From contig JAUZOU010000002.1 in the NCBI GenBank assembly GCA_030706285.1, forward strand, positions 1 to 35,854: a DNA stretch of 35,854 nucleotides, written 5' to 3'. This stretch comes from Bacteroidota bacterium. GTDB taxonomy: Bacteria > Bacteroidota > Bacteroidia > Bacteroidales > UBA1402. The notes below the pieces were generated by a model. That model was given only the letters and a program-made list of their open reading frames with translations. It did not search any database and was not told where the DNA came from. The position numbers and the translations under genes were made by a program. This document shows positions 4,998 to 29,856 of the stretch, piece by piece; position 1 is the stretch's first letter; every line of letters begins with the position of its first letter.

Positions 4998-5043
4998 TAG
5001 CTATCACGCTGACAAACTTGATTATTGACACAATAAAAGCCAT

Positions 5044-6161: not shown

Positions 6162-6175
6162 GACAAGGTGAATAT

Positions 6176-6207
6176 TTTGCCAACCGCCTATATTTTATAT
6201 AGTTTTA
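6176..6207 (+). promoter_or_regulatory. Candidate Bacteroides-type promoter for the third LRR gene
   Basis: TTTG at 6176..6179 matches the -33 element. TAgtTTTa at 6200..6207 matches the -7 consensus TAnnTTTG with one mismatch. The spacing between them is 20 nt. It lies just after the terminator and upstream of the start codons at 6227 and 6287. Confidence 0.3.
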
Positions 6208-6286
6208 CCCATTTTTTAATGGCCGCATGCGGCGGCCGCTGATAAAACAACTATTACGGAACACCAAAAAAACAAACAAAAGACGT

Positions 6287-9897: not shown

Positions 9898-11178
9898 TTA
9901 TGGAGCTAAAAACTCCATTTTCGGTGCCGATTTTTCCTTGCAAGAGGCTGTCGATATTTTCGGAACTTTTGCCACCTTATAATAGGCATCAACAATGGAA
10001 TCAATCACGTAGGCCACCATTTCATCCGTCATCTGCGGATATACCGGCAGGGATATTTCCTGAGAAAAGTTCTTGTAGGCCTGAGGGTAATCGTTTATGT
10101 CATAGCCTTGTTCCTTGAAAAACGTCAGCATAGGCATCGGTATGAAATGTACATTCAGGTACACTCGTCTAAGGGTAATGATGTCGATCATTTCATCCCG
10201 CTGCTCTTCGGTTATATTCTTAATACGCAACGCGTACAAATGGTAAGAAGTCTCCTTACCTTTTGCTTCGGATGGCGGCAATATAGCCCAGTCAAAATTG
10301 GCGAAAGCACGGTTATACTTCAAAAAAGTCCGTTTGCGTTTGAGCAATAATTTGGGGTATTCCCGCAATTCAGCCAACCCGATGGCGGCATTGACATCGG
10401 GCAGATTGATTTTCATACCCAATCCGACAATGTCATAACGCCATCCTCCAGCTTTGCTCTTTGCCAAGGCATCCTTTGTCTGACAATTTAGTGACATCAT
10501 GCGTAGTTCAGTATAAAGCGCCTCGTTATCAAAGGGTTCAGGAAGGTTCAGGCAGATAGCGCCACCTTCTGCTGTCGTCACATTTTTTACCGCATGCAGG
10601 GAAAATATAGCAACATCCGTTTCAGCGCCTGTCCGTTTGTAACTATTATAGATTGCACCCAATGAATGAGCGGCATCGTTTAAAATCAAGATACGCCCTA
10701 ACTTATGCTGGACAGGAGAAGTAGCATGAAACCGGACATTGATTTCCGGTTCTCTGACCAGTTTCATGATTTCATCATAATCACAGGGGAAACCAGCCAG
10801 GTCTACCGGAATGATGGCTTTCGTCCTCTCCGTGATGGCACGGCGAATACCTTCTATGGAAATATTGAAATCTTCACCCGAGTCAACCATGACCGGCCTT
10901 CCTCCGGCATGAATCACAGCCAGGGCGGTGGCACAATACGTATAGGCTGGTACAATCACCTCATCCCCATCTTTCAATCCCAGCCAGCGCAACATCATGA
11001 TGGCGCCTGATGTCCAGGAATTCACACACAAGACTTGCCTGGCACCGGAATAGCTTCTGATTTCCTGTTCTAAGGCTTTCACTTTGGGGCCGGTCGTAAG
11101 CCAACCAGACTTCAACGTATCAACAACTTCATTAATGACAGAGTCGTCAATATAAGGGGGAGAGAATGGAATTTGCAT
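9898..11178 (-). CDS. DegT/DnrJ/EryC1/StrS-family PLP-dependent sugar aminotransferase (PglE/WcfR-like)
   Basis: The family-typical N-terminus MQIPFSPPYIDDSVINEVVDTLKSGWLTTGPKV starts at the internal ATG 11178. PLP-lysine region FSLHAVKNVTTAEGGAI. The upstream 60 codons of the ORF (to 11358) have no family similarity and run through a terminator-like hairpin. Confidence 0.9.
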   Translation of the reverse strand: MQIPFSPPYIDDSVINEVVDTLKSGWLTTGPKVKALEQEIRSYSGARQVLCVNSWTSGAIMMLRWLGLKDGDEVIVPAYTYCATALAVIHAGGRPVMVDSGEDFNISIEGIRRAITERTKAIIPVDLAGFPCDYDEIMKLVREPEINVRFHATSPVQHKLGRILILNDAAHSLGAIYNSYKRTGAETDVAIFSLHAVKNVTTAEGGAICLNLPEPFDNEALYTELRMMSLNCQTKDALAKSKAGGWRYDIVGLGMKINLPDVNAAIGLAELREYPKLLLKRKRTFLKYNRAFANFDWAILPPSEAKGKETSYHLYALRIKNITEEQRDEMIDIITLRRVYLNVHFIPMPMLTFFKEQGYDINDYPQAYKNFSQEISLPVYPQMTDEMVAYVIDSIVDAYYKVAKVPKISTASCKEKSAPKMEFLAP

Positions 11179-11228
11179 AAGATGTGCATTTAATTGGATA
11201 ACAAATTTTAATTTTTCAACACAGGGGA

Positions 11229-11269
11229 ATAAAAAAATAGTCTGTCTTGCAGAAAATAAGACAACTATT
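11229..11269 (-). terminator. Terminator-like hairpin plus U-run on the minus strand, between the carrier-protein gene and the aminotransferase gene
   Basis: Plus-strand aatagtctgtctt (11236..11248) pairs with aagacaactatt (11258..11269): 12 bp, one bulge, 9-nt loop. On the minus strand the stem is followed by UUUUUAUU (plus-strand A-run 11228..11235). The stem is AT-rich, with only 4 GC pairs. Confidence 0.35.
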
Positions 11270-11400
11270 TGCTTCTGTTGTACCACGGGAAAATGAGATT
11301 GAACATTGCAACTAATGGTTGAGAGCCATACGCAGAAGCATCCATACAAATCATTCAAGAGTATCCAATACCTAATTGAAAAAGATAAAAACGTGACAAG

Positions 11401-11628
11401 CTACTTGTCCTTAATCAGATTATACAGCTCTTCGACCGTAGCAACATTACGAATGTCTTTCTTGAAAATTTGTGTATGACACTGTTCATTGATCATCACT
11501 ATGACCAACAATTCCGTCAAGGAACTCCATTCATCCAGATCCTGAAACCTGGTAGCCGAATCTATTCCTTTGGAGGACGATTCGTCAAATTGTTTTGAGA
11601 ACTCACGTACAAAGTCATTCAGTTCCAT
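11401..11628 (-). CDS. Small acyl/peptidyl carrier protein (PP-binding type), paralog of 22373..22606
   Basis: 75 aa and acidic. The motif DLDEWSSLTELLVIVMI places a Ser at about residue 35-36, where ACPs carry the phosphopantetheine serine. It aligns clearly with the 77-aa protein at 22373..22606 (ELEEWSSLIALAVMAI). Confidence 0.7.
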   Translation of the reverse strand: MELNDFVREFSKQFDESSSKGIDSATRFQDLDEWSSLTELLVIVMINEQCHTQIFKKDIRNVATVEELYNLIKDK

Positions 11629-11648
11629 AGGATATAGGTATAATCGTG

Positions 11649-12323
11649 TTATAAATAATCTTCTTCAACCAACAACGTATCGACTGAGTATTTTCTGGCA
11701 GGATTGCCTGAATACAATAACGCCGGCTTTGTTGACTTATTAATGAACGAAGCAGCCCCGACAAACGATTGCCAGCCGATCGTAAGACCATTGGCAACCG
11801 TCGTGTTCTGACCGATGAAGCAATTATCCTCGACGGTAACATCTCCTCCTATCACCACTGAAGCAGCAATGAAGACATTATTACCCACTTTGCATCGATG
11901 ACCGACAATCGCCAGTGCATTCAGGAAGCAGCCCATCCCAATAGATGCTCCCTTACCGATATAACACCCATCACAGATAAACGCGTTGCAACCGATTTCA
12001 GCCGTATGACAAATAGCCTTGGAAGAAATATAGCTGATCAGGTGATAGCCATTCCTCATGGCCTGTTCGATGACTTCGCCTCTCGTTCTGTTCATTTTCC
12101 GATACCCGATTGCAACAAACATATCGAATTCAACCGGTGGATATTTTTCCAGAACACACTCAAAATCCACTACCGGCAGCCCCTCAAACCGGTCAATTTT
12201 CCTAAACGCCTTATGGACAGTAAATGCAACCACCTCATAGTCACTGTCTATATCAAGATAATACTTCACTTCTCCAGCAAGATTCTCATCACCGAAAATG
12301 ATCACTTTCTTTTTCATTATCAT
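11649..12323 (-). CDS. NeuD/PglD-family hexapeptide-repeat sugar N/O-acyltransferase
   Basis: N-terminal Rossmann-like MKKKVIIFGDENLAGEVKYYLDIDSDYEVVAF, then left-handed beta-helix hexapeptide repeats (IGCNAFICDGCYIGKGASIGMGCFLNALAIVGHRCKVGNNVFIAASVVIGGDVTVEDNCFIG). The start could also be the ATG at 12317. Confidence 0.8.
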   Translation of the reverse strand: MIMKKKVIIFGDENLAGEVKYYLDIDSDYEVVAFTVHKAFRKIDRFEGLPVVDFECVLEKYPPVEFDMFVAIGYRKMNRTRGEVIEQAMRNGYHLISYISSKAICHTAEIGCNAFICDGCYIGKGASIGMGCFLNALAIVGHRCKVGNNVFIAASVVIGGDVTVEDNCFIGQNTTVANGLTIGWQSFVGAASFINKSTKPALLYSGNPARKYSVDTLLVEEDYL

Positions 12324-13034: not shown

Positions 13035-13068
13035 ACTATTTCCTCTAATGATTAATTTCCGCCCAGTA

Positions 13069-15542: not shown

Positions 15543-16163
15543 TTATTCAATAAGCATAAGACCATAGAAAATCACAGAATTCGTATAAATCCCTTTTCTG
15601 CTAACAACTGTCTGAATGGTTTTTATGAAGATCCTGGCATCCAAGCAAAAGCTCATGTTGTTTGCATAATAGGCATCATTTAACCGCTTTTCCCTGTTTG
15701 TCAAGCTATTTCTGAAATAAGCCTGAGTATAGCCTGTTATACCAGGCAAAGCCTTCATTTTATCCGATTCATCGTTCCTAAAAGATCCGATTGCACTAGA
15801 CAGACTTGGTCTTGGACCGATGATCGACATATCTCCCTTTAAAACGTTTATCAGCTGTGGTAGTTCATCCAAGCTCGTCTCTCTTATAAACTTTCCGATC
15901 CTGGTTACCCTTGGATCGTTTTTTGAATTATACGTGCTACCGTCTGAATTGATCAGTTGTGGTGCATTGACTTTCATAGACCTAAATTTATACATCTTAA
16001 AAATCTTATACTGTCTGCCGATCCGGTCGGCCTTGTAAAAAACCGGTCCTCCATCTTCAAGTTTAATCAATCCCCCCAGTATTATGCAAACGATCAAGAA
16101 AACCGGAAGGCATAAAAAGAAGACAAGCAGATCTTCCACTCGTTTGAAAATTGTGATGTACAT
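15543..16163 (-). CDS. Small monotopic phosphoglycosyl transferase (PglC-like), copy 2
   Basis: FKRVEDLLVFFLCLPVFLIVCIILGGLI re-entrant helix. FKMYKFRSM, DELPQ, GDMSIIGPRP, PGITGYTQAYFRNS. Clear paralog of 12423..13034. Confidence 0.85.
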   Translation of the reverse strand: MYITIFKRVEDLLVFFLCLPVFLIVCIILGGLIKLEDGGPVFYKADRIGRQYKIFKMYKFRSMKVNAPQLINSDGSTYNSKNDPRVTRIGKFIRETSLDELPQLINVLKGDMSIIGPRPSLSSAIGSFRNDESDKMKALPGITGYTQAYFRNSLTNREKRLNDAYYANNMSFCLDARIFIKTIQTVVSRKGIYTNSVIFYGLMLIE

Positions 16164-16198: not shown

Positions 16199-17383
16199 TC
16201 AAGCACGTACAATGCCTTCATCGATCATCTGCTTGGCCAGTTCGACCCTGCGTAAACAGTCATTTTTGTCGGATGAAACAGCCAGTACATAACCGCAACC
16301 ATCCAGATTATTTTTATACTCCCTGATCGAATCATGGACCTGCAAATGATGAAAAATATGGACCTGACATTGATGCGTAATCTTATTAAAATCAGGCAAT
16401 CCAGTTATCTTTCCAGGTTTCAGTGCCAGTATTTTTGTCGCTACAGCATAAGTTCCAACAGATGCCATGTTCACCTCATCTCCGACAGCCGCCCTGATCA
16501 GATTGCCCATATAATCGATACCCGTGTGCAACGGAACGATGTGAGAGCCGATCAGATTACCCCCCATCCTTGCACCCACATCAACAATATAGATTTTGTT
16601 ATCGCTGGTAATCAAAATGTCCATATTCACAGCACCGAAATCAATGCCAAGAGTTATTATGGCATTGCTCACAACGGTTTTGACTTCTTTCTCTATGGCT
16701 AAACCACTAGGCAACGAATGGCCCAGTTCTGCGTAGATAGGGGGCGAAGTCATCTGTTTATCAAGAATTGCCAGCACATGGACATGACCATTGTATACAA
16801 ACGATTCGACCCCATATTCTTTTCCAACAATAAAATCTTCAATTAAAGCCTTCCCGACATTTGAGGACGCGATGGCCATCCGGCAGGCAGATCGAAGATG
16901 CTGAATCGAATTTACCCGTTTAATCGCTTTACTACCCGATCCGTCACATGGTTTGACCATAACAGGGAAGTGAATACTATCTCTAAGCTGATCGATTTCA
17001 TTCAGGTCACTGATTAAATAATAATGAGACAAATCATCAATCTGACTGGTAAATAACGTACGACGTATATAGAATTTATTTTTGACTGTTTGTGCTACCT
17101 TATAGTCAATGCCGGGAAGTGACATTTGCTGAGAAATATAGGCTGATGTCAAGACTCCATAATCTGTTGCAGCTGTCAGAACTCCATCAACCTTCTTCTC
17201 TTTGGCATAGGCCAGGCAGGACTCTTGATCTACAATATCGATTGTTTTGTATTCGTCGGCATACCTGAAACCAATAGATTTCGGATTCCCATCAACGACA
17301 ACAGTCTCATAGCCAAGCTCCTTCGCTTTTACTATAATAAAAGTCTGTAAAAAGCCCGCACCAATAATTAAAATTCGCTTCAT
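16199..17383 (-). CDS. ATP-grasp carboxylate-amine ligase (L-amino-acid-ligase-like), copy 2
   Basis: MKRILIIGAGFLQTFIIVKAKELGYETVVVD. FPVMVKPCDGSGSKAIKRV. IEDFIVGKEYGVESFV. VDVGARMGGN. Confidence 0.8.
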   Translation of the reverse strand: MKRILIIGAGFLQTFIIVKAKELGYETVVVDGNPKSIGFRYADEYKTIDIVDQESCLAYAKEKKVDGVLTAATDYGVLTSAYISQQMSLPGIDYKVAQTVKNKFYIRRTLFTSQIDDLSHYYLISDLNEIDQLRDSIHFPVMVKPCDGSGSKAIKRVNSIQHLRSACRMAIASSNVGKALIEDFIVGKEYGVESFVYNGHVHVLAILDKQMTSPPIYAELGHSLPSGLAIEKEVKTVVSNAIITLGIDFGAVNMDILITSDNKIYIVDVGARMGGNLIGSHIVPLHTGIDYMGNLIRAAVGDEVNMASVGTYAVATKILALKPGKITGLPDFNKITHQCQVHIFHHLQVHDSIREYKNNLDGCGYVLAVSSDKNDCLRRVELAKQMIDEGIVRA

Positions 17384-17408
17384 ATCAAGCCAATGTTAAG
17401 CAATTATA

Positions 17409-17891
17409 TCACAATACTTTTTCCATGATATAGACTCGAAAATAAGTGGTTGGTCTTGAGCCTGTAATGGAAAAATGATGTTTCTTAAAGAATTGAATGG
17501 CATTTTCACTTTTATCGTACACATCCAAATAAAGGGAATAGACACCTGCTTTGTGGCAAAAATCTTCAATGTATGCCATACTGCTCATGCCGATACCTTG
17601 ACCTGAAGCCAAAGGGAGCGTTGCCATCTTATAAAGCTTGGCGATAGTAGCGACATTGTAACTTATTTCTATTTGAAACGTATGAACATACCTGCCGGAA
17701 TCAAGGTCCTCAACCAAAAAAACATGGCGATTTGTACAATCATTCTGGATGGAGTCTATCGGGTAAGGCGTTTTCCAATGACACAATCCTAGTTCTTTAT
17801 ACATGTATTCACCACATTCTTTAATAATCCTATAACTCTCCTTGATTTTGTTTGTATCACTAGCTGATATTTCATAAAATCGCAAGTTCAT
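17409..17891 (-). CDS. GNAT-family N-acetyltransferase
   Basis: 160 aa. Acetyl-CoA-binding-type motif LASGQGIGMSSMAYIEDFCHKAG, followed by LDVYDKSENAIQFFKKHHFSITG. Confidence 0.75.
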   Translation of the reverse strand: MNLRFYEISASDTNKIKESYRIIKECGEYMYKELGLCHWKTPYPIDSIQNDCTNRHVFLVEDLDSGRYVHTFQIEISYNVATIAKLYKMATLPLASGQGIGMSSMAYIEDFCHKAGVYSLYLDVYDKSENAIQFFKKHHFSITGSRPTTYFRVYIMEKVL

Positions 17892-17993
17892 GGCATTTAT
17901 TTTCTAAATTTGATATCCATTCCAGGTTCTAGGCGGAAAACGCACGTCAAAATCCATTAACCGTTGGCAGACTTGCAGGTAAATAGACCTGTA

Positions 17994-19058
17994 CTAACAT
18001 TCAATCATCTTATTGAACCTCAACTGTCCTACCTCCATAATTATGGCAGCCCAAGTCAATCCGACACCAAATCCAGCCAGACACAGTTTATACTGATTGT
18101 GGCAGAGTTTGTCTCCAAGGTTATATGAAATGTTGGTCGGCACCGTGACACTACTGGCATTTCCGAATAGCCCGACGATGTTGCTCGGCATTTTTTCTCT
18201 GTCCACTCCGATCGTATCTGCCAATTTATTTAACATAAATCGGTTGGGCTGATGAAACATATACCAATCAATGTCGTCACGATTCAATCCTGATTTTGTC
18301 AGTAATTCTTCAATCATCGGAGGCACTTCCCTCTGGACAAAATTGAAGATTTCATCTCCTTTCATGATAACCTGGTTCAGCGACCGGATATTTCCATCCT
18401 CATCTTCACGCATGATCGCCGTTTCTGCACTGCATGGCATACGGAAACCACCAGCCGGAATCATCAGTGCAAAGGCGCCTGTACCATCCATCTTGATGGC
18501 ACAATGAATGACCGAGCCGGTCGGATTCTTTTCGACAATAGTCACAGAAGCCGCATCACCTGCCAATGGATATGAATTCCGGTCTTGTTTGGAGACTTTT
18601 GAACTCAGGACATCGGCATTCAACAGAACGACCCTGTTAATCGAGTCCTGCTCCAGTAACATAAAGGCCTGAATAAGGCCAAGTTCATAGCCAGCACAGC
18701 CCTGATTAATATCCATACAAATCATATCCTGTTTCATGCCGTAATGGCCTTGAATAATGTTGCTTGTCGGCGGCAGGAAATAATCCGGCGATTGAGAAAC
18801 AAACAACAAGGCATCGATCTCGTTTTTATCCAGCAGTTCATTTTGAAACAGATAATCCAGTCCGGCGATGCACAAATCTGATGCACAAACCTCACTGTCT
18901 GCAAGTCTATGCGTATTGTACCCCATAGCCAGTTTTAGTTTCATCGATTTGGCCGGAGGAAAATTATAATTTTCCACCTCATCGTCAAACTTCAGTTCAT
19001 TTCGAGGCAAGACAGTCAGAATACCACTGATCCTTTTGTTGTTGAATGTCAGTTTCAC
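17994..19058 (-). CDS. KAS III (FabH)-like thiolase-fold enzyme, copy 2 in transcription order
   Basis: A Cys-His-Asn triad is present: DINQGCAGYELG, MFHQPNRFML, GLFGNASSVTVP. The first possible start in the open frame is GTG at 19056..19058, 8 nt after the upstream stop. The next in-frame ATG is about 48 codons in. Confidence 0.85.
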   Translation of the reverse strand: MKLTFNNKRISGILTVLPRNELKFDDEVENYNFPPAKSMKLKLAMGYNTHRLADSEVCASDLCIAGLDYLFQNELLDKNEIDALLFVSQSPDYFLPPTSNIIQGHYGMKQDMICMDINQGCAGYELGLIQAFMLLEQDSINRVVLLNADVLSSKVSKQDRNSYPLAGDAASVTIVEKNPTGSVIHCAIKMDGTGAFALMIPAGGFRMPCSAETAIMREDEDGNIRSLNQVIMKGDEIFNFVQREVPPMIEELLTKSGLNRDDIDWYMFHQPNRFMLNKLADTIGVDREKMPSNIVGLFGNASSVTVPTNISYNLGDKLCHNQYKLCLAGFGVGLTWAAIIMEVGQLRFNKMIEC

Positions 19059-19066
19059 TTGAGTTT

Positions 19067-20083
19067 TTATCTAAGTGTATTTGTCTTTCCTAAATCGTAT
19101 CTTTTCGATAGTGCAATTCGAAAATTTTCCGGTGGTATTCCACAGGAAATCATAGCTATAAATACTTCCGATTCTCTTATATCGCACAACTTACGTAACG
19201 TTAAATCCTTTTCAATCGTATTACTGCAATTCAACATACAAGCTCCAATTTTATAATAATGCAAAGCATAAAGTACATTCATTGCATAGATGCCACCATC
19301 TATAAAAGATTCATTTCTTTCTCCAACATTTGCAAACACACCGACTTCAGCTGTTATAACGATCAACTTGTTAACTAAATGTCCAAAGCCTCTATTTCCT
19401 CCCTGGATAATTAATATTGAATTAATTTGATCTTTATTTTCAAACACATACGTCCTCCAGCATTGTCGATTGCAGGCTGATGGTGCCGTTCGTGCCAAAT
19501 CCAGGACCTCAATCAGTTTTTCTGTAGGAATGTTTTCAGTAGAATAATTCCTTATACTTGATCTCGATTTGGCAAATTGAAAAAAGGGAGATTCCGAGTA
19601 TCTGAAATAGTCTTCAATAGATGCGTCTTTTTGACGACAAACAGTGGTTTTAGCTACCACTTGCTTTAAATCATGAATTGAATTTGCGACTACCGCTTCT
19701 AACTGAAACATACAATTTTGGTGAAATTGTTCATACTCCAAGACGACGCCAACGGCATGTTCCAGCTGTTCATCAGTTTCGCCATATTTTTCAATATATT
19801 GCCTGCAATTAGTAGCCAGATTAAAGAGTAACTCCCTTCCAAATCCGAGTTTGGTATCTGGCATAGTCAAGCCTTTTTCAACGACATGGTATTCCTTTAT
19901 AATCTTACCAATTAGCTTTTGAGCGGTATTCGATCCAAAAGTATCTGAAAACCGTATGTACCTGTTCATGTCATAGCGGTACGCTTGCATTAGATGCCAC
20001 AGTAAGCTAAATTGTAGCTTCTTTCGTTTCAGAAAATCAAAAACGACAGTGGGTAGAATATTCTGAAGTAGTTCTTTTAGCAT
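19067..20083 (-). CDS. Nitroreductase-family (FMN oxidoreductase) domain protein with an unrecognised N-terminal extension of about 160 aa
   Basis: The C-terminal half carries RSSIRNYSTENIPTEKLIEVLDLARTAPSACNRQCWR, which fits the nitroreductase RxxxRxF ... PSxxNxQPW pattern. I recognise no family for the N-terminal half. Confidence 0.7.
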   Translation of the reverse strand: MLKELLQNILPTVVFDFLKRKKLQFSLLWHLMQAYRYDMNRYIRFSDTFGSNTAQKLIGKIIKEYHVVEKGLTMPDTKLGFGRELLFNLATNCRQYIEKYGETDEQLEHAVGVVLEYEQFHQNCMFQLEAVVANSIHDLKQVVAKTTVCRQKDASIEDYFRYSESPFFQFAKSRSSIRNYSTENIPTEKLIEVLDLARTAPSACNRQCWRTYVFENKDQINSILIIQGGNRGFGHLVNKLIVITAEVGVFANVGERNESFIDGGIYAMNVLYALHYYKIGACMLNCSNTIEKDLTLRKLCDIRESEVFIAMISCGIPPENFRIALSKRYDLGKTNTLR

Positions 20084-20215
20084 ATTAGTTTTTTTTTAGC
20101 CCGTAAAACCGAGCCCTGTTGGTTTAACTATCTTGTGTCGGACAAGCTGATCAATAGTAATAGATTATACCGATGCCTATTCCAGTCTTTTTCTTTACAA
20201 TTGATTCATTTCCAT

Positions 20216-20452
20216 TTACTTGGCGATATTTTTGGTAACAAGTGCCATAATATGTTCAACAGAGTTGAAATTTTCCGGAATGATGTCCATCCCGCTGATT
20301 GAGATTGAATAGGCATCATCCAATGACGAAACAAGATTGACTATATCGAATGAATCCAACATGCCTTCTTCAATAAAGTCCATCTGGGCATTAAAATTGT
20401 ATTCCGGACGAAGTTCTTCCAGGATTTCAAGTATGATTTCTTTCATAATCAT
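20216..20452 (-). CDS. DltC-like (D-alanyl-carrier-type) carrier protein
   Basis: 78 aa. FIEEGMLDSFDIVNLVSSLDDAYSISI closely parallels the DltC motif (EEGLLDSMGTVQLLLEL...) around the phosphopantetheine Ser. The start is ATG 20452 or 20446. Confidence 0.75.
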   Translation of the reverse strand: MIMKEIILEILEELRPEYNFNAQMDFIEEGMLDSFDIVNLVSSLDDAYSISISGMDIIPENFNSVEHIMALVTKNIAK

Positions 20453-20550
20453 AAGTTTTTATTCAAGACCATAAGCAACTCACATGTCGGATTTTCGCCC
20501 ACGCTGAACAGACGTTTGGGACAAACATGTTCGTTTCATAGCTTGATGTT

Positions 20551-21312
20551 TTATTGTTTGACAAACACATAATCTTTTAGACCATCTGGCTGATAATCAA
20601 GGATCTTATACATCTTCTTATTTAGTTTATTCATCGAATCATACCAGAAATAGGATTTCTCAATCTGATGTTCACCCATATAGTTGAACATATTGAAAAG
20701 TAAGAATAAGGCATTGTCCCAGCCCGTATGATCAAGCCAGCAATTAAAGTAAATTCTTGACTGTTCCCTGGTATAAATAATGACGCCTGTCACATCGCCT
20801 GATTGTTCATGCCGGTTTACCAAGGCCTGTTCATGCTCAATCATTCGTCGAAGCTCTTCCCTGGAGGGCAAATGGTCCAGATACGGATTAAAATGTGAAT
20901 AAAGCAGCGTATATATAGCTTCCAACTCATCTGGGCGGGCATAACACTGGATAAAAGGGCCGCTGGATTTATTGGAATTTTTATAAAGTCGTTCATAGAT
21001 GCCACATAGCTTGTATCCGCCTGTTACGAGAATCATCTCCAAGGATTGATCGATGGCTGTCTTTGATGGAATGTTGATGATATCTTCCGGCATCAGCCGT
21101 TTCAAGACACGCATTAATTCGACTGCGTTGTTGGATAAAAAATAGATACGGGAATACGTTTCATGATTTTTTTTCAAAATCAATGATTCCGGCAGTTCAA
21201 TATACTGCGTATCTGTCAGATCCACGCCGTAATAATTTGAGAATGCAGGCCGTTTCGATAGGATGCAGGCCACTTTTTCCTTTAATTGATGATGATCGGC
21301 CGGAATAAACAT
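20551..21312 (-). CDS. Hypothetical protein (253 aa). The C-terminal half may have a GNAT-like fold
   Basis: A clean ORF, separated by 3 nt from the stop of the upstream KAS III-like gene. The C-terminal region ARPDELEAIYTLLYSHF...VTGVIIYTREQSRIYFNCW...MYKILDYQPDGLKDYVFVK has the general layout of a GNAT domain but lacks a clear Q/RxxGxG/A motif. Confidence 0.5.
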   Translation of the reverse strand: MFIPADHHQLKEKVACILSKRPAFSNYYGVDLTDTQYIELPESLILKKNHETYSRIYFLSNNAVELMRVLKRLMPEDIINIPSKTAIDQSLEMILVTGGYKLCGIYERLYKNSNKSSGPFIQCYARPDELEAIYTLLYSHFNPYLDHLPSREELRRMIEHEQALVNRHEQSGDVTGVIIYTREQSRIYFNCWLDHTGWDNALFLLFNMFNYMGEHQIEKSYFWYDSMNKLNKKMYKILDYQPDGLKDYVFVKQ

Positions 21313-21315
21313 ACC

Positions 21316-22314
21316 TCAATTGAAATTTAATGTGACACCACCCCAGGAATAACCCGCTCCAAAACCTGCCAGCAAGACTTGTCCATGTAAGCGATCCTCT
21401 TTTTTTGCCTCATACAGAGCGATCGGAATACTTGAGGAAACCGTATTTCCTACATTTTCCAGGAATATGTAAAATTTTTCTTCTTCGATTGACAGCAGTT
21501 TTCTCAAATAGTTGATCATGTATTTGTTGGCCTGATGAAAAACAAACAAGTTGATATCAGGTTGTAAAAGGTGGTTACGGGCCAACACATGATCGACCAA
21601 ATCAGGAACGACCAGATTTGAAAAAGAAAAGACGGCACTACCGTTCATATACAGAAAGTCGCTTGAGACCGGATTATTTGAAGCATCAAAAGTCAGGTCA
21701 TTCAGTGGCTCACGATGACGCATCGCCCCTGTCTTGATGATCAGATCCTCTTTGTTTTTGCCATCTGATCCGAACGAAAACTCTCCGATTTCAGCCAGTC
21801 CATTCTTTGAGATTAAGGAGGCTGAAGCGCCATCACCAAAGATCGTGCGGTTTCCTTTATCCTTCGGATGTAAGCATTTAGTCATCGTTTCACCCGTTAG
21901 CAACAATACATTGGTAGCCATTCCGCTAAAAATCAGCCCTTTTGACAGAGCTAGTCCATAAATAAAGCCTGAACAACCCAATGAAAAATCCAAGGCACCA
22001 CAGGTGGTCGGCAGCCTTAACTCATGCTGAATCAGACAGGCCGAACACGGCAACATGTAATCCGGAGTCTCAGTGCAAAACAGCACAAAATCTATCGTCG
22101 ACCGGTCAATTTGATTTTCCTTGAATAGATTTTCTGCTGCCCTGACAGCCAGATCAGCTGCCGTTTCATTGTCAGCCGCTACATGCCGCTGATTGACACC
22201 CACTTTGGAGGCTATCTTGTCAACGCTCCATTCCGGAAACAACTCAACCAGCTGAGCATTAGTCAATATCTTTTCAGGAAGGGCATATGCCAAGGCCTTA
22301 ATATAGACTTTCAT
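21316..22314 (-). CDS. KAS III (FabH)-like thiolase-fold enzyme, copy 1 in transcription order
   Basis: Internal ATG at 22314 gives a FabH-typical start, MKVYIKALAYALPEKILTNAQL. Triad: DFSLGCSGFIYG, VFHQANKYMI, ENVGNTVSSSIP. The longer ORF to 22401 would overlap the upstream carrier gene by 29 nt. Confidence 0.85.
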   Translation of the reverse strand: MKVYIKALAYALPEKILTNAQLVELFPEWSVDKIASKVGVNQRHVAADNETAADLAVRAAENLFKENQIDRSTIDFVLFCTETPDYMLPCSACLIQHELRLPTTCGALDFSLGCSGFIYGLALSKGLIFSGMATNVLLLTGETMTKCLHPKDKGNRTIFGDGASASLISKNGLAEIGEFSFGSDGKNKEDLIIKTGAMRHREPLNDLTFDASNNPVSSDFLYMNGSAVFSFSNLVVPDLVDHVLARNHLLQPDINLFVFHQANKYMINYLRKLLSIEEEKFYIFLENVGNTVSSSIPIALYEAKKEDRLHGQVLLAGFGAGYSWGGVTLNFN

Positions 22315-22372
22315 AAGATCATATTTATTTTTAACGCATAGGCTTTCGTGACCACGGGGGAATTCAAACCTT

Positions 22373-22606
22373 TCAGTTCCTTTTTGACTCGACCAGTTCA
22401 AACAAATCCTTGATGGTATTCATTTGCCTCATTTCATTGACGGTTATGACAACGCCATACTTTTTGTCTGTTATAGCCATAACGGCCAACGCAATTAAGG
22501 AAGACCATTCTTCCAGTTCTCTGAATTTTGTTTCCGGGTTAAAAACCGCTTTGTCCGTTTCCTCAAACTGATCTGAAATCAGTTTAATGTATTCGTTGAC
22601 TTCCAT
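22373..22606 (-). CDS. Small acyl/peptidyl carrier protein, immediately downstream of the adenylating enzyme
   Basis: 77 aa. FRELEEWSSLIALAVMAITDKKYG with Ser at about residue 35-36. It starts 5 nt after the stop of the adenylation gene. Paralog of 11401..11628. Confidence 0.7.
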   Translation of the reverse strand: MEVNEYIKLISDQFEETDKAVFNPETKFRELEEWSSLIALAVMAITDKKYGVVITVNEMRQMNTIKDLFELVESKRN

Positions 22607-22611
22607 AATAA

Positions 22612-24126
22612 TTAGGCATTTAGGGTTCGACTTAGTTCCAACCTGTTGATCTTTCCATTCGAATTGACAGGCATCTTATTGATTCTGATCGCTTTTGACG
22701 GCAACATGTATTTAGGAATCAACTTAGACAATTGCTGCCGGAGATCGCTCATGGAAACGTCCGTCTTTGCCTCATAAAATAGAGTTATTTGCTGAACCTT
22801 ATAATCGTAGACGGCACAGCAACTATCTACCAGATGGGTTCCAAGAATGACTGTTTCAATTTCTCCAAGTTCAATCCGGTAGCCGTTCAATTTTATCTGA
22901 GCATCTTTTCGACCAACCAGGATAATCTCACCCGCCCTGTTTTGGTAGGCCAAATCGCCTGTCCGGTAAATCAGTTCCGGATAATGTCGGTTCAATGGAT
23001 TTTGAACAAACACTGTTTGTGTCTTTTCCTTGTCGTTGTAATAGCCCAATGCAAGGGATGATCCTCTCACACACAACTCACCTTGTTCACCAGGTTTGGC
23101 CATTTCTCCATTTTCAGTCAAAATCAGGATGTGCGTATTTTTACAAGCATAACCGATCGGCAATGGCTCATCATCTGAAAACGCCCGTTTCACCTCATAG
23201 TAAGTACAATCTACCGTTATTTCAGTCGGTCCGTACAAATTAACATAGCGACAATCGGGCAAATAGTTTCTCCAGTAATTCAGATGCTTGTTGTGCATCA
23301 CATCTCCGGCAAAAAAAACATCACGCAGATAAACTGGTTTTTTCATTGCAAACAGGTCCAGATTGGCTATCGTCGCAAACACATAAGGCACCCAGAAAAT
23401 CAGGCTGATTTGCCACTCATTCAACAAGTCGATCAATCTGGCAGGAAATGAAAACGAGTCCTCCGGCAAGATGGCCAATGTCGCTCCTGTGGCATACATC
23501 AGATAAATATCCAAGGTGGAATTGTCAAAATAGAATGGAGATTGATTGCCGATGATGGTAGTTTCGTCGATGTTCAATGCCAAGACGGCCCAGTCTATGT
23601 AATCAATCACCCCACGATGGGCAATCACGACGCCTTTTGGAATTCCGGTAGAACCTGAAGTGAATATCGAATAAACAGGATCTGTGTCAATTTTACGATC
23701 GATTGTATGCCGAATGGCCGATTCATCTATTTCCGGAGACAGGATCAAATCTTCGTATAAAATAATTTTCTGTAAACAAAATGACGTCAATGTTTCATAA
23801 TGACTTTTATCCGTAATGACGATTTGAGGGTCAATCACGTTTAAAATCGCTTTCACGCGAGCATCAGGAGACTTCACATCCAAAGGCACATAAAAGTTTC
23901 CACTATAATTAATTCCAAGAAAAGAGATAACAGATTCTTTGTTTTTAGGCATATATATTGCCACCGGACTGTCTTTCACCTGGCTGTTCAGCAGTTGCGA
24001 GGCTATCCTTTTCCCGGCATTCATCAGTTGAGCAAACGAAATCGCTCCATTCGCATCTTTTACAGCAATTTTGTCAGGATAGGCAGCCGTGGTTCTTTCC
24101 AGGTAGTCTGTTACGTTGGTTGTCAT
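22612..24126 (-). CDS. DltA-like stand-alone amino-acid adenylation enzyme (AMP-binding/ANL superfamily)
   Basis: The NRPS A-domain core motifs appear in order: SIFTSGSTGIPKGVVIAH (A3), NQSPFYFDNSTLDIY (A4, with the Asp that contacts an alpha-amino group), NLYGPTEITV (A5), GELCVRGSSLALGYY (A6), YRTGDLA (A7), GRKDAQIKLNGYRIELGEIE (A8), LPKYMLP (A9), NSNGKINR (A10). Length and motif spacing match DltA (NQAPFSFDLSVMDLY, TYGPTEATV) as I recall it. Confidence 0.9.
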   Translation of the reverse strand: MTTNVTDYLERTTAAYPDKIAVKDANGAISFAQLMNAGKRIASQLLNSQVKDSPVAIYMPKNKESVISFLGINYSGNFYVPLDVKSPDARVKAILNVIDPQIVITDKSHYETLTSFCLQKIILYEDLILSPEIDESAIRHTIDRKIDTDPVYSIFTSGSTGIPKGVVIAHRGVIDYIDWAVLALNIDETTIIGNQSPFYFDNSTLDIYLMYATGATLAILPEDSFSFPARLIDLLNEWQISLIFWVPYVFATIANLDLFAMKKPVYLRDVFFAGDVMHNKHLNYWRNYLPDCRYVNLYGPTEITVDCTYYEVKRAFSDDEPLPIGYACKNTHILILTENGEMAKPGEQGELCVRGSSLALGYYNDKEKTQTVFVQNPLNRHYPELIYRTGDLAYQNRAGEIILVGRKDAQIKLNGYRIELGEIETVILGTHLVDSCCAVYDYKVQQITLFYEAKTDVSMSDLRQQLSKLIPKYMLPSKAIRINKMPVNSNGKINRLELSRTLNA

Positions 24127-24316
24127 CTTTATATATAATTAATAGACAGTCTGCTATAAAAACAAGAGATACTAACCCTTCCAGTGTGTGTTCTTTAAAG
24201 GATATAACAGGGGTGTGCAAGGATTTTATACCCATTGCTATCAAACCGGCTACCGACCAGATTATAAGGCCATTATCCTTATAACCAGCCTTCATTCAGT
24301 CCTGCTATGAAAAAGT

Positions 24317-25255
24317 TTATTTATCAAGATTGTTGATGCTGTCCATAACCGCCAACGTTGTGTCAAGATAGGTTTGCAAGACATATTTCTTATGAGCCAA
24401 TAAATCAGTAACGCCTTGATATTCAGCTGCCAAAATAGCGTTTGACGACCGGCGATTACAAAGATAATCTTCATCATTCCACCAAATAAGCCCACTCGCT
24501 TTATTATTAAAATATTCGATGGTCAATAGTTTTGCTATAATTTGCTTATAGGTTGGATAATCTATAAGCATATTCCCGTTTGTAAAAGCTGGGTTGTCAC
24601 TTGAACAATATCTATGCCAGACAAAGCAATAGACAGGTTTATTTAACATACTACCCAATGCCAGGGCAAACCAAAGATTAGCCGTCATATAGTGAGAAAC
24701 AAACATCTGGTCAACGGTTAAACCTGCTTCATATCTTGGATAGAACTCTGGAGCCAGAAAATCCAGTTCTTTAAGCAAAGGAAGACATCGCTTTTGATTG
24801 GTCCCTTTTTCTTCAGCATATTGACTATAAATCCAGGTAGGCATAAAATAATAACTCCATTGCATATTTGGTCTCAGTTTTTTTGCATAACGCAATGCCG
24901 CAATAAACTGATTCAGATATTGTTGATAGACAGTTTCAGATGTGGAGCCCCTGCCGGCAAGCGTGTTATAGATCGATCCTTCCCAGTTTATGATGGCAAA
25001 GCCATGCTCTGCGGTGTCAGGCATCAACGAATTGACAATGCTCTCCATCTTTTCCTTGCTAAAAGAAACGCCATCCGCATTGACGAATTGATCCTGATAA
25101 AAGATATAGGCGCGTTGCAGTCCATTGGTTTTACCGAATTGAATTTGCCAAGAGTAAGGTTCAAGGGCGAACAACAGCTTTTGTTCAGTCTGGGAATTTA
25201 GTTTACCGAATGACCATCCAACCATCAACAAAAGCAAGAACAATAGCTTTTTCAT
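24317..25255 (-). CDS. Secreted protein with hyaluronidase (GH56)-like motifs. Putative polysaccharide-processing hydrolase
   Basis: Internal ATG at 25255 gives the signal peptide MKKLLFLLLLMVGWSFGKLNSQ. Motif series: FAIINWEG (compare GH56 VIDWEEW), AKKLRPNMQWSYYFMP (compare KLLRPNHLWGYYLFP), FLAPEFYP (compare LYPSIYL), ASGLIWWN (compare ASGIVIWG). The comparison sequences are recalled from animal hyaluronidases. No search was run. Confidence 0.5.
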   Translation of the reverse strand: MKKLLFLLLLMVGWSFGKLNSQTEQKLLFALEPYSWQIQFGKTNGLQRAYIFYQDQFVNADGVSFSKEKMESIVNSLMPDTAEHGFAIINWEGSIYNTLAGRGSTSETVYQQYLNQFIAALRYAKKLRPNMQWSYYFMPTWIYSQYAEEKGTNQKRCLPLLKELDFLAPEFYPRYEAGLTVDQMFVSHYMTANLWFALALGSMLNKPVYCFVWHRYCSSDNPAFTNGNMLIDYPTYKQIIAKLLTIEYFNNKASGLIWWNDEDYLCNRRSSNAILAAEYQGVTDLLAHKKYVLQTYLDTTLAVMDSINNLDK

Positions 25256-25411
25256 ACGAATGATTTTATTATAGACAATCAGGGTTAAGTCATCTATAAA
25301 CAACGAATCAGTTCATCCAATCCATATAATGATTGATAACATTCGATGACCCAAAAAAGATCGGTCTGACTCTGATTTTTATTAAACATGAAGGCTTTTG
25401 CCCGGCCGCAT

Positions 25412-26527
25412 TTATGAAAGAAGACTAGCATATCTAGTCTCAATCATATTGTAGATAATTTCTGTACTGTAAAAATTTCTCACTTTACGATACGCTTTTT
25501 CGCACAACATATTGGCATAGGCAGCATTCTCTATACAAAATTCAATCGCTTCCCGGATAGCTGATGCATTCTTTTCTCCAACAAGTAAACCGCATTTACT
25601 TCCATCAGCATCCGTTAGCATATCCGGTATAGCCGCTCTGTAAGTAGAGATAACCAATTTTCCTAAACTCATCGCTTCAAGAATGGAAATTGGAAAGGCC
25701 TCAGAAGGGAAATAGGTCGGCAGGGCCAGAATATCCATTGATTTCAGGAACTCAACAGCCATTGGATTTGGCAAAGGTCCAATTATTTGTATGTTTTTGT
25801 CCTTATACTGATCAAGAATTTCAGCTATTCTTCGTTCTGTCTTTGGACTGCCACCACCAACAATAAACAATGTCACATCTTTATTTTGCATGGAAATAAA
25901 CGCCTCAATCAATTCAAAAATGCCTTTTGTGGGAATTAGGTTCCCAATGAATGCAACGTTGTTAAACTTCTTGGGAGAATTGTCATATTCACGAGGCACA
26001 TCTATCCCATTTGGAATAAGATATATTTTTTGATTTAAGGACGGAATGCTTTTCAATATTTCTTCTGTTTTTCTGTCAAGAATCCAGATATTGTCGTATT
26101 GCTTCATTGTTAGTAGCAGGGACCATTTGTTAAAACCGCCGCACTCAATGATCGTCGGAATCGCCCCATAGCGACAATGTAAAATGCATTTTGTACCTTT
26201 ACGTTTGCAGATCCTGCACAAAACATAATCACGCAACGAACCGAACGAACCGCTGGTTGTGGTATGCATAATATCAAACCGCTGGCCTTTAAGGATTGTT
26301 CTGACCTGATGTGCCAAGATTATTAAATCCCAAAGTCCGGTCAATATTCTCCGAAGATTGGAATACCCCATTTTGTTTCCAAATCTGGGCATCGCATCAA
26401 TCGAAGTGATCTCAAAATGGTCTGATTTGAAATTTTTCACAAACTTTATAGCCCAAGAGCCAATACCACTACTGTTTTGTTTATGCACGACCTCACCTGT
26501 AGGAGCAATCAATAATACTCGCTTCAT
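25412..26527 (-). CDS. GT4-family glycosyltransferase
   Basis: GT-B fold. C-terminal EX7E-type region LPTYFPSEAFPISILEAMSLGKLVIST. Confidence 0.85.
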   Translation of the reverse strand: MKRVLLIAPTGEVVHKQNSSGIGSWAIKFVKNFKSDHFEITSIDAMPRFGNKMGYSNLRRILTGLWDLIILAHQVRTILKGQRFDIMHTTTSGSFGSLRDYVLCRICKRKGTKCILHCRYGAIPTIIECGGFNKWSLLLTMKQYDNIWILDRKTEEILKSIPSLNQKIYLIPNGIDVPREYDNSPKKFNNVAFIGNLIPTKGIFELIEAFISMQNKDVTLFIVGGGSPKTERRIAEILDQYKDKNIQIIGPLPNPMAVEFLKSMDILALPTYFPSEAFPISILEAMSLGKLVISTYRAAIPDMLTDADGSKCGLLVGEKNASAIREAIEFCIENAAYANMLCEKAYRKVRNFYSTEIIYNMIETRYASLLS

Positions 26528-28667: not shown

Positions 28668-29856
28668 TTTCCCGTTCTTTATTCTTGATCAGCCCTTCCG
28701 TCATTGCCCAAATCATAGCCAGATAGGCAAAAAAGGTCGGATAAATAATCAAATGGCTGACCGAACTCATGACAATAAAGATCAAAAACGCTGCATAATT
28801 AGCCTGGAAAAACCGATCGTCAATGTGTCTTAGATAGAAGAGCCGTCGGATCAGTAGTAAAATGATGTACAAATAAATTATCAATCCGACGATGCCAAAA
28901 TCAAATAAGACTTCGAGGAAATCATTGTGCGCAGACACCCCGGTACCTTCAACTGTTGTACTGGCTGCCAATACACTATTTTGTCCGGAACCGATCAACT
29001 TGTCTTCAAGACTCTTGTCTTCAAATTTTTTCCAAACAGTTTTATAAATGTCCAACCGGCCTGATCCTTCATCACTTTGCATGGAAACAAACCTGTTTAA
29101 AATAAAATTATTCGTTTCTTTATTAATATAATTAAATGCAACAACTCCAGCTGCAATAATTGCACAGGACAACAGTATGCCGGCAACTATGTTGACACTT
29201 TTAGATTTAACGAAATCATAATAAATCGACATAAATAGAACTAAAACAGAATAGATTAACGCCGATCGTTTAAATGATATTAAAACCAATATAAATCCGA
29301 TGATGAGGAGCAGGTATTTTAAGCGCTTAGTCTTTGATAAAAAAGCAAAAGGCAAAAGAAGGGCATTAAAATAGATGGCATTGGATTGTACAAATACTTC
29401 TTTACCGTACTCATCATATCTTATAACCGTTTTGGTTCTCATATAGACAAAGAGAAGCAGCATCAAAAAGAACAGGAAAGGAAAGGCCTTTAAGAATAAT
29501 CTAACATTGCTCTCCTGAGAATCTTCATAGGCAATATAGTAAAACAAAAAATAGATTAAAGGCCACCAAATGATAGTTCGAAGGCTGCGAAACAAATCAT
29601 TTGAATTGACAATTGTATTTAATACGGCATAAATGAGCCAGACAAAGACAGCCATGTTTAAACTACTGTTGACCAAGTTACCGATATTTGAAATGATGAC
29701 GATCAGAGCGACAGCCTCCAGCAATAGTAACAACACAATGGCGAAATAACTGAACGTTGCAAATGTTGCCACATCATTTGCCTGTAAAGCGCAAAGGCTC
29801 CATAGCCCCAGTAATCCGTACGTGATGAATGTTATTGGCTTACTCATACAAGGCAT
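28657..29856 (-). CDS. wzy: O-antigen/capsule repeat-unit polymerase (Wzy; O-antigen-ligase-like family)
   Basis: Polytopic membrane protein with about 10 hydrophobic segments. It has a large loop followed by SAHNDFLEVLFDFGIVGLIIYLYI, typical of the Wzy_C/O-antigen ligase domain. It overlaps both neighbouring genes by 11 and 17 nt. Confidence 0.7.
   Translation of the reverse strand: MPCMSKPITFITYGLLGLWSLCALQANDVATFATFSYFAIVLLLLLEAVALIVIISNIGNLVNSSLNMAVFVWLIYAVLNTIVNSNDLFRSLRTIIWWPLIYFLFYYIAYEDSQESNVRLFLKAFPFLFFLMLLLFVYMRTKTVIRYDEYGKEVFVQSNAIYFNALLLPFAFLSKTKRLKYLLLIIGFILVLISFKRSALIYSVLVLFMSIYYDFVKSKSVNIVAGILLSCAIIAAGVVAFNYINKETNNFILNRFVSMQSDEGSGRLDIYKTVWKKFEDKSLEDKLIGSGQNSVLAASTTVEGTGVSAHNDFLEVLFDFGIVGLIIYLYIILLLIRRLFYLRHIDDRFFQANYAAFLIFIVMSSVSHLIIYPTFFAYLAMIWAMTEGLIKNKERENEQ

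Follow-up and report, generated by a model that had tools for sequence, protein, structure and literature searches.

A capsule operon with three carrier proteins and two KAS III enzymes

The window analysed here is a 35,854-nucleotide stretch of a Bacteroidota genome (positions 1 to 35,854 of contig JAUZOU010000002.1, assembly GCA_030706285.1), and our subject is a group of genes on its minus strand that encode a DltA-like adenylation enzyme (ADE), small carrier proteins and two enzymes of the beta-ketoacyl-acyl carrier protein synthase III (KAS III) type. Every gene from 7854 to 35831 lies on the minus strand, and together they form a Wzx/Wzy-type capsule operon with a Wzc-like kinase, YdjC, a flippase, an FrhB-like protein with a pyruvyl transferase, Wzy, glycosyltransferases, two small phosphoglycosyl transferases, two ATP-grasp ligases, a left-handed beta-helix (LbH) acyltransferase and a DegT-type aminotransferase. 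The core of the module occupies 17409-24126 and a distal part 9898-12323. We propose, at a little under an even chance, that these genes form a carrier-protein mini assembly line through which an amino-acid-derived acyl group would be made and amide-linked to an amino sugar. The genes on which this proposal rests are the following.

22612..24126, minus strand: ADE, a stand-alone amino-acid adenylation enzyme (DltA-like) of 504 residues (Pfam AMP-binding, TIGR01733)
22373..22606, minus strand: CP1a, an acyl carrier protein (ACP)-type carrier of 77 residues, the probable partner of KS1 (FRELEEWSSL motif; identity to cassette carriers)
21316..22314, minus strand: KS1, a FabH-type KAS III of 332 residues (NCBIfam NF006829; Cys-His-Asn)
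20551..21312, minus strand: u253, a tandem-GNAT-fold N-acyltransferase of 253 residues without the CoA-pyrophosphate loop, motif A (family profile, AlphaFold2, Foldseek)
20216..20452, minus strand: CP2, a DltC-like carrier of 78 residues, the probable cognate carrier of ADE (Pfam PP-binding; IEEGMLDSF)
17994..19058, minus strand: KS2, a KAS III of 354 residues and conserved partner of CP2 and ADE (Pfam ACP_syn_III, ACP_syn_III_C)
11649..12323, minus strand: HEX, an LbH (hexapeptide) acyltransferase, the candidate transferase onto the amino sugar (Pfam Hexapep)
11401..11628, minus strand: CP1b, a third carrier of 75 residues (FQDLDEWSSL) between HEX and DegT (38-41% identity to CP1-type carriers, E 1e-19)
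9898..11178, minus strand: a DegT-type sugar aminotransferase with probable start ATG at 11178 (Pfam DegT_DnrJ_EryC1, E 2e-81, the match starting at residue 69 of the open reading frame (ORF))

A preliminary description of the window had drawn attention to three of these genes: the 504-residue adenylase, the 77-residue carrier that starts 5 nt after its stop codon, and the FabH-like enzyme 58 nt further on. Their coordinates and strand hold. Absent from that description were the second and third carriers, the second KAS III, the tandem-GNAT, the nitroreductase-like protein, the small GNAT, the two ATP-grasp ligases and the LbH acyltransferase beside DegT; five of these (u253, CP2, the nitroreductase-like gene, KS2 and the small GNAT) follow directly downstream of KS1. 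It had also noted the absence of DltB, a membrane-bound O-acyltransferase (MBOAT), and of DltD, and neither was found in the window by Pfam over all ORFs of at least 150 residues or by phmmer with MBOAT and DltD-like seeds from related loci. Pfam and phmmer likewise gave no short-chain dehydrogenase/reductase (SDR) or ketoreductase anywhere in the window, and Pfam gave no lipid A acyltransferase domain among its ORFs.

Conserved partners of the adenylase

How is the adenylase arranged in other genomes? The family is a large one: more than 8000 clusters were scored, and relatives occur in at least 597 GTDB species genomes, with hosts that include Bacteroidota, Lachnospiraceae, Veillonellaceae/Selenomonas, Acidobacteriota, Verrucomicrobiota, Melainabacteria, Helicobacter, Treponema and Fibrobacter. 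With so many phyla represented, the earlier suggestion that such chemistry would be unusual for a Bacteroidota organism is not supported. We compared the window proteins with the ORFs of 87 adenylase-centred loci (83 in a first pass; individual loci are given below by L numbers). In the first pass a CP2-type carrier accompanies the adenylase in 72 of 83 loci and KS2 in 33 of 83, while a KS1-like enzyme does so in only 4 of 83. The gap between adenylase and carrier is filled by a gene of about 270 codons for either a member of the u253 family or a Formyl_trans_N protein. The conserved partners of ADE are CP2, u253 and KS2, and its earlier grouping with the adjacent carrier and FabH-like enzyme as a functional set is probably wrong.

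The loci fall into two architectures. In 27 loci, mostly of Lachnospiraceae, the order is a DltD-like gene, ADE, a formyltransferase or GNAT, CP2 and an MBOAT; in 34 loci, mostly of diderms, it is ADE, a GNAT or formyltransferase, CP2 and KS2. The genes that accompany them also differ: a FabG-like SDR is found in 23/34 of the KS2-type loci and 3/27 of the MBOAT-type loci, CP1-type ACPs in 22/34 and 2/27, an LbH protein in 20/34 and 2/27, and DegT in 21/34 and 1/27.

A second comparison was centred on KS2 and is unbiased as to the adenylase: metagenome contigs were searched with a KS2 alignment and 80 loci were kept. CP2 lies directly upstream of KS2 in all 73 loci with at least 300 nt of upstream sequence, and ADE is present in all 48 loci with at least 3 kb upstream, which carry either u253 (38) or a formyltransferase (10). 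Downstream, an ACP directly follows KS2 in 59 of 70 loci, 50 of 58 have an SDR no more than 2.6 kb away, and an LbH or AAC(3)-like (Antibiotic_NAT) N-acyltransferase is found in 29 of 42. From these counts, the canonical module is ADE, a GNAT or formyltransferase, CP2, KS2, an ACP, a ketoreductase, an N-acyltransferase and DegT. Organisms in culture that have it include Flavobacterium paronense CECT 8460, Aquirufa antheringensis 30S-ANTBAC, Selenomonas ruminantium HD4 and Bacteroides luti. We found no description of this module in the literature, in a search that did not cover subscription journals.

Two further observations concern these loci. A formyltransferase-bearing Dlt-like operon (DltD-like gene, adenylase, Formyl_trans_N, DltC-like carrier, MBOAT) occurs in the Lachnospiraceae loci L037-L042, L047-L050, L053, L054, L057, L060, L062, L069 and L074; a literature search gave no description of it, and its gene content points to a polymer outside the cell that is esterified with N-formyl-aminoacyl groups. 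Shortly after the KS2-ACP-SDR block, several loci have a gene of the metallo-beta-lactamase fold (L022 13565-14260, L092 9639-10133, L097 9826-10458), and their products might release or edit carrier-bound intermediates.

The adenylase and its probable substrate

ADE matches Pfam AMP-binding (E 7.6e-64) and scores above cutoff with the NCBIfam model for an amino acid adenylation domain (TIGR01733, 342.6 bits, cutoff 317.4), and below cutoff with both DltA models (TIGR01734, 304 bits, cutoff 560; NF003417, 317 bits, cutoff 476). Its closest relatives in the PDB are the A-domains of non-ribosomal peptide synthetases (NRPS), with LgrA at the top, and DltA; an exact-sequence look-up of the adenylase gave no match. 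As the preliminary description had it, all core motifs can be read in the translation: A1 to A5 are ISFAQL, YSGNFYVPLD, FTSGSTGIPKG, FYFDNS and NLYGPTE, and A6 to A10 are GELCVRGSSLALGY, YRTGDL, GRKDAQIKLNGYRIELGEIE, IPKYMLP and NGKINR. The Asp of FYFDNS (D201) falls in the alignment column of the A4 Asp in the LgrA A-domains, and both D201 and the A10 Lys (K492) are invariant in 22 homologues. Because this Asp is invariant and the TIGR01733 score exceeds its cutoff, the sequence supports the earlier view of ADE as a DltA-like enzyme that would activate an amino acid, here without DltB or DltD.

Which amino acid this might be is a separate question. The specificity-code positions, whose extraction had been recommended, read DNLYFALVDK, and no amino acid is named from them. 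The KS2-type loci have DNL[SFY][LF]ALVDK in common and those of the MBOAT type DNLSLCLD[AV]K, while B. subtilis DltA has DLMSMCTVAK. The pocket residues are bulky, and the Asp at position 331 is invariant. This pattern suggests a small, perhaps polar, amino acid. We considered Ser from the ten-residue code; the likeness to Ser-type codes (xxxxFxLVDK) is partial, limited to the last positions, and we made no call.

A separate cassette beside the adenylase

The carrier that follows ADE after five nucleotides (TTATT) proves to have its own relatives. CP1a has no Pfam match, weak matches to ACPs (E 1e-3) and none to DltC; the Ser in its EWSSL motif lines up with the one that carries phosphopantetheine in AcpP and DltC. 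Its identity is 37-50% to small ORFs, with no Pfam PP-binding match on record, that hold the carrier position in carrier-ketoreductase-KAS III cassettes (47-50% for the carriers of the carrier-SDR-KS1 cassettes in L090 and L092), and it is more distant kin of the PP-binding-positive ACPs in L003 and L086.

KS1, with its ATG at 22314, is 332 residues long, as is an 89%-identical orthologue. It scores 264.9 bits against NCBIfam NF006829 (cutoff 249) and 321 bits against PDB 3gwa, and shows the features of a KAS III: ACP_syn_III and ACP_syn_III_C domains, Cys112-His244-Asn274 (E. coli numbering) and a GFG(x)G oxyanion loop. In E. coli FabH (EcFabH), Trp32 and Arg151 stack on the adenine of CoA. 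By sequence alignment the KS1 family keeps Trp32 in 120 of 120 relatives and has Lys at positions 36 and 151. Relatives at 65-68% identity number in the thousands in Bacteroidota.

In Capnocytophaga (L088) and in L090 a carrier of 76-77 residues, a FabG-like SDR and KS1 form a cassette with no adenylase within 6 kb, in surroundings that are nonulosonic-acid or polysaccharide loci. When such a cassette occurs in an ADE module its position varies: it lies in the gap between ADE and u253 in the window, L084 and L092, between u253 and CP2 in L095 and L133, and past KS2 in L110, L120 and L125. Its SDR is retained in L092 and gone in the window and in the closest relative, L084 (adenylase 84% identical). 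Because the cassette occurs without an adenylase and moves within ADE modules, CP1a is likely the ACP of KS1, and its adjacency to ADE likely reflects the landing site of a mobile cassette. We also considered KS1 as a housekeeping FabH and rejected this, since its orthologues lie in loci for polysaccharides or nonulosonic acids and have a carrier and ketoreductase of their own there.

The carrier CP2 and the ketosynthase KS2

The second carrier is the one that resembles DltC. The best NCBIfam match of CP2 is DltC (NF003464, E 8.7e-10, 38.5 bits, below the cutoff of 68), and it carries the DltC signature as IEEGMLDSF (EEGxLDSF), which CP1 lacks. Gene fusions join this carrier to enzymes that modify amines: u253 is fused to CP2 in L006 (11515-12576) and L021 (11515-12528), and a formyltransferase is fused to CP2 in Bacteroides luti (L001, 11539-12639). 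Since the amine-modifying enzyme is fused to CP2, the amino acid probably sits on this carrier.

The gene that follows CP2 elsewhere is KS2. The two are mostly spaced by -4 or -1 nt and lie within 88 nt in 31 of 33 other loci, as against 1157 nt in the window. KS2 falls below every NCBIfam cutoff, its best PDB match is 4efi, and it too has both ACP_syn_III domains, the GFG(x)G loop and Cys112-His244-Asn274, a triad that is invariant in 35 KS2 orthologues, in 17 other KAS III enzymes of the loci and in the 120 KS1 relatives. By sequence alignment, the KS2 orthologues have Lys or Arg in place of the CoA-binding Trp32 of EcFabH and a hydrophobic residue in place of its CoA-binding Arg36, while they retain Arg151.

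The preliminary description had offered two roles for the FabH-like enzyme, transfer of the aminoacyl group to a sugar in the manner of CerJ or ChlB6, or its decarboxylative extension. CerJ and ChlB3-type acyltransferases use a Cys-His-Asp triad (PMC9573744), and a CerJ-like role was rejected for KS1 and KS2 alike, as both keep Cys-His-Asn. In most loci, moreover, KS2 is followed by a dedicated LbH or AAC(3)-like N-acyltransferase. Because Cys-His-Asn is kept and ACP, ketoreductase and N-acyltransferase genes come after KS2, we favour decarboxylative condensation over acyl transfer. The general idea of a KAS III coupled to an aminoacyl-carrier is therefore supported, and extension is its best-supported form, except that it would fall to KS2 (17994-19058), outside the three genes first described, and would act on an N-acylated aminoacyl group.

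A tandem-GNAT protein without motif A

The protein between KS1 and CP2, u253, has no Pfam match of its own; a family hidden Markov model ties it to members of which 16 of 33 match Pfam GNAT. Its AlphaFold2 model, built from an alignment of 10 database homologues, has a pLDDT of 90.9, and Foldseek matches the model to the tandem-GNATs VipF, MshD and WecD (E 6e-11 to 1e-6, TM 0.5-0.6) and to glycine N-acyltransferase. By this predicted structure, u253 has the GNAT fold.

GNAT motif A (R/Q-x-x-G-x-G/A), which binds the CoA pyrophosphate, is kept in most family members and is removed by a four-residue deletion in u253 and 15 relatives. Extra genes between ADE and CP2 accompany 13 of the 16 loci of this deletion class, compared with 2 of 59 others (Fisher p = 4e-10, with related loci counted). 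In the deletion-class loci that were examined the extra genes are an FkbH with a carrier, a carrier-(SDR)-KS1 cassette or a second AMP-ligase with a carrier; L147 has a small carrier-like ORF alone, with no Pfam match and no recognisable loader. Because the inserted genes constitute a second carrier-loading system, the association suggests that deletion-class u253 draws its acyl donor from a carrier protein, not from CoA.

In L004, L005, L007, L094 and L096 (also L026, L033 and L035) the adenylase module has taken up an FkbH-like enzyme for glyceryl loading and the carrier that belongs to it, in some loci together with an SDR or a MaoC-like dehydratase.

A proposed pathway and its alternatives

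The gene identities, the conserved gene linkage, the fusions and the active-site residues are established by these comparisons, and from them we infer the chemical steps, their substrates and the division of labour among the carriers. ADE would activate an alpha-amino acid, probably a small one, and load it onto the DltC-like CP2, not onto CP1a. CP1a and the FabH-type KS1 would act as a self-contained cassette and form a beta-ketoacyl thioester on CP1a, probably acetoacetyl from acetyl-CoA and malonyl-CP1a, and this group would remain unreduced, the cassette's usual ketoreductase being missing from the window. The cassette would in this way be the source of an unreduced beta-ketoacyl N-cap: u253, its CoA-binding loop lost, would acylate the amino group of the aminoacyl-S-CP2, probably with the acyl group bound to CP1a. 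In simpler relatives a normal GNAT using acetyl-CoA, or a formyltransferase using formyl-tetrahydrofolate, would cap the aminoacyl-S-CP2 instead. KS2 would then take the N-blocked aminoacyl group as its primer and carry out a decarboxylative Claisen condensation with malonyl-ACP (CP1b or CP1a), giving a beta-keto-gamma-(acylamino)acyl-ACP, and the LbH acyltransferase beside CP1b would place this product onto the amino sugar made by DegT.

If this is taken in full it would contain two new activities: KS2 as a phylum-spanning family of aminoacyl-primed ketosynthases, which would turn an N-blocked amino acid on a DltC-like carrier into a statine-like (gamma-amino-beta-keto or -hydroxy) acyl group for amino sugars, and the u253 lacking motif A as an amide-former working from carrier to carrier. 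That both are right we consider rather unlikely, though not to be dismissed. The motif-A-less class could be a non-NRPS analogue of the condensation domain that joins to the aminoacyl carrier a second carrier-bound acyl unit, whose source would be a KAS III, an FkbH or another AMP-ligase.

Several points weigh against the assembly line as proposed. We found no assay of any module enzyme in the literature; we know of no glycan with a gamma-amino-beta-hydroxy or beta-keto acyl group, and a literature search for one gave none. The window, like L084 within its 8.6-kb contig, lacks the ACP-ketoreductase pair that usually follows KS2. Both the locus counts and the u253 association include related loci and are not phylogenetically independent, and the residue positions depend on the FabH, DltA, DltC and AcpP reference sequences that served as rulers. 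Finally, a small carrier directly flanks ADE also in L011, L013, L014, L114 and L147; given this and the 5-nt gap in the window, ADE may be able to load CP1a.

What else could the genes be doing? One alternative is that KS2 with an ACP and a ketoreductase in other loci, or KS1 with CP1a in the window, only make a short beta-keto or beta-hydroxy-acyl cap for the aminoacyl-S-CP2 from acetyl-CoA, while the amino acid stays unextended. The final group would then be an N-(3-oxo/3-hydroxybutanoyl)-aminoacyl amide on an amino sugar; if the keto group is kept, ring closure to a group of the 3-hydroxy-3-methyl-5-oxoprolyl type might follow. O-antigens are known to bear N-(3-hydroxybutanoyl)-alanyl and 5-oxoprolyl-type N-acyl groups, the KS-ACP-SDR order past CP2 resembles the stand-alone carrier-SDR-KS1 cassette, the deletion class of u253 correlates with extra acyl-carrier cassettes, and the missing ketoreductase fits a kept keto group. 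However, a formyltransferase is part of 10 of the 48 KS2 modules, and in most of the rest the GNAT has its acetyl-CoA loop intact; the amine would already be capped, and KS2-ACP-SDR is still there. KS2 always comes together with CP2 and ADE even though a generic 3-hydroxybutyryl cassette exists independently, and it lacks the CoA-binding Trp32. We judge this alternative distinctly unlikely. A very unlikely one, to our reading, is that KS2 is a non-condensing acyltransferase that replaces the monoderm MBOAT and moves an N-acyl-aminoacyl group from CP2 to a cytoplasmic sugar or lipid-linked intermediate. KS2 and MBOAT do hold the same slot immediately past CP2 in the two architectures, and KAS III-like acyltransferases exist (PMC9573744), but the invariant His and Asn belong to a decarboxylation/enolate site, KS2 lies outside the CerJ/DpsC clade, and an ACP, a ketoreductase and a dedicated N-acyltransferase lie past it in most loci.

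The model of the preliminary description, in which ADE loads the adjacent CP1a and KS1 either transfers the aminoacyl group to a sugar or extends it, has in its favour the tight gaps of 5 and 58 nt, the same ADE-CP1-KS1 order in L084 and L092, and the small carriers that directly flank ADE in several other loci. It is set against orthologues of CP1a and KS1 that form a carrier-SDR-KS cassette with no adenylase within 6 kb, a cassette that is placed differently in other ADE modules, a KS1 that scores above the FabH subfamily cutoff and keeps the CoA-binding Trp32 throughout its family, a DltC motif that is in CP2 and not in CP1a, and, for the transfer variant, a triad that is not CerJ-like; we give it a small chance. 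The chance is similarly small that the operon simply houses the genes for two or three decorations unrelated to one another (N-acyl-aminoacyl, beta-ketoacyl, and amino acids added by the ATP-grasp ligases) with no cross-talk between carriers. Capsule loci are mosaic, the KS1 cassette moves about and functions by itself in other loci, and the window has two phosphoglycosyl transferases and two ATP-grasp ligases. Yet the link between the u253 deletion class and an inserted loading cassette is strong, and the interleaved order recurs in L084, L092 and L093.

Other genes of the operon

Three further genes belong to the core of the module or follow it.

19067..20083, minus strand: NTR, a nitroreductase-family flavoprotein of 338 residues (Pfam Nitroreductase, residues 172-315)
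17409..17891, minus strand: a small GNAT of 160 residues after KS2 (Pfam Acetyltransf_1)
16199..17383, minus strand: an ATP-grasp ligase (Pfam ATP-grasp_4, LAL_C2), which follows the module in L084 too

NTR is inserted between CP2 and KS2 in the window only and is absent from all other loci, including L084. Its GC content is 0.37, compared with 0.42-0.44 in its neighbours; its N-terminal half (165 residues) lies outside the Pfam match, and a PDB search returned generic nitroreductases only. The position of the small GNAT is held by proteins of 165-184 residues in L084, L093, L092 and L147. Those of L093, L092 and L147 match Pfam GNAT families (Acetyltransf_3/4); the L084 protein has no Pfam match on record and matches the window GNAT by phmmer.

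Elsewhere in the operon, CP1b is too small to appear in ordinary ORF lists, given their length threshold. Two small Bac_transf phosphoglycosyl transferases (15543-16163 and 12423-13124) and two ATP-grasp genes of the L-amino-acid-ligase-like kind (16199-17383 and 14308-15489) share the one operon, all on the minus strand, which suggests either a merged locus or additional amino-acid attachments to the glycan. Directly upstream of ADE, the gene at 24317-25303 (minus strand) encodes a 328-residue protein with a signal-peptide-like N-terminus and a sub-threshold match to Glyco_hydro_56 (hyaluronidase); its position is kept in L084 and L085, and it lies elsewhere in the locus in L003 and L086. The FrhB-like gene (F420 dehydrogenase beta, 4Fe-4S) and the polysaccharide pyruvyl transferase gene (30937-32112 and 29840-30940, minus strand) form a pair that recurs in L011 and L034. 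At the 3' end of the operon, 7854-9842 (minus strand) encodes a 662-residue protein with a signal-peptide-like start, no Pfam match and no predicted membrane helices. The operon is flanked at 2682-7825, on the plus strand, by three BspA-type leucine-rich-repeat proteins, two of the three with type IX secretion C-terminal sorting domains, a trait that assigns the organism to Bacteroidota, and L003 and L086 have a flank of like kind. A promoter and terminator scan of 17000-25500 gave sites no more frequently than in shuffled sequence, with a consensus ill-suited to Bacteroidota.

Significance and relation to known systems

Side groups of capsules and O-antigens set serotype, recognition by phages and antibodies, and the host immune response to gut Bacteroidales, and for the attachment of amino-acid-derived N-acyl groups to amino sugars the responsible genes have for the most part not been assigned. 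The module described here recurs across phyla with two outlets, a KAS III-ACP-ketoreductase-N-acyltransferase series or MBOAT/DltD. If KS2 does extend an aminoacyl thioester, chemistry of the NRPS and polyketide synthase (PKS) type would be linked to polysaccharide biosynthesis, and glycan decorations not seen so far would be predicted. If KS2 does not, the module is still the likely source of the known N-acyl-aminoacyl decorations.

One close likeness is to the Dlt system of Firmicutes (DltA, C, B and D). ADE is a stand-alone enzyme with the motifs NQxPFxFDxS, FxGE and NxYGPTE, CP2 has EEGxLDSF, and the monoderm relatives have a DltD-like gene ahead of ADE and CP2 and an MBOAT behind them. 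The window differs in that it has neither MBOAT nor DltD, the scores against the DltA and DltC equivalog models stay under their cutoffs and the specificity code is another one; the modules never lack an enzyme that modifies the amine (GNAT or formyltransferase), and in diderms a KAS III lies past the carrier. AlmEFG, which adds glycine to the lipid A of Vibrio cholerae, likewise pairs a DltA-like adenylase with a small carrier and does without DltB and DltD. There AlmG acts on lipid A, whereas the window has no lipid A acyltransferase by Pfam and its module sits in a capsule operon with KAS III enzymes, a distinction drawn from gene content.

With CerJ, ChlB3/ChlB6 and DpsC the two KAS III enzymes share the thiolase/KAS III fold and a tailoring role that draws on acyl groups bound to a carrier or to CoA; the difference is the triad, Cys(Ser)-His-Asp in those enzymes (PMC9573744) and Cys-His-Asn in KS1 and KS2, invariant in 52 sequences of KS2 orthologues and other KAS III enzymes of the loci and in 120 of the KS1 family. 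A precedent in the same phylum is the O-polysaccharide locus of Flavobacterium psychrophilum, in which an ACP, two KAS enzymes and a ketoreductase are predicted to make a 3,5-dihydroxyhexanoyl group and the PglD homologue wfpG to transfer it to UDP-Qui2NAc4N (PMC6519341). This wfpC-wfpG set resembles ours in having a dedicated ACP, KAS and a PglD-like LbH protein beside a DegT/PglE-type aminotransferase in a Bacteroidota polysaccharide locus. By description, which is how we compared the two, it starts from acetate units (a prediction) and has no adenylase, DltC-like carrier, GNAT or formyltransferase, and the window for its part has no ketoreductase. The order of reactions that we propose is like the initiation of hybrid NRPS-PKS lines, as in the N-formylation by the LgrA F-domain: adenylation, an aminoacyl-S-carrier, N-acylation on the carrier and extension by two carbons at a ketosynthase. 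In the window, however, each part is a small protein of its own, a KAS III serves as the ketosynthase, and the product would be bound to a polysaccharide rather than secreted as a metabolite.

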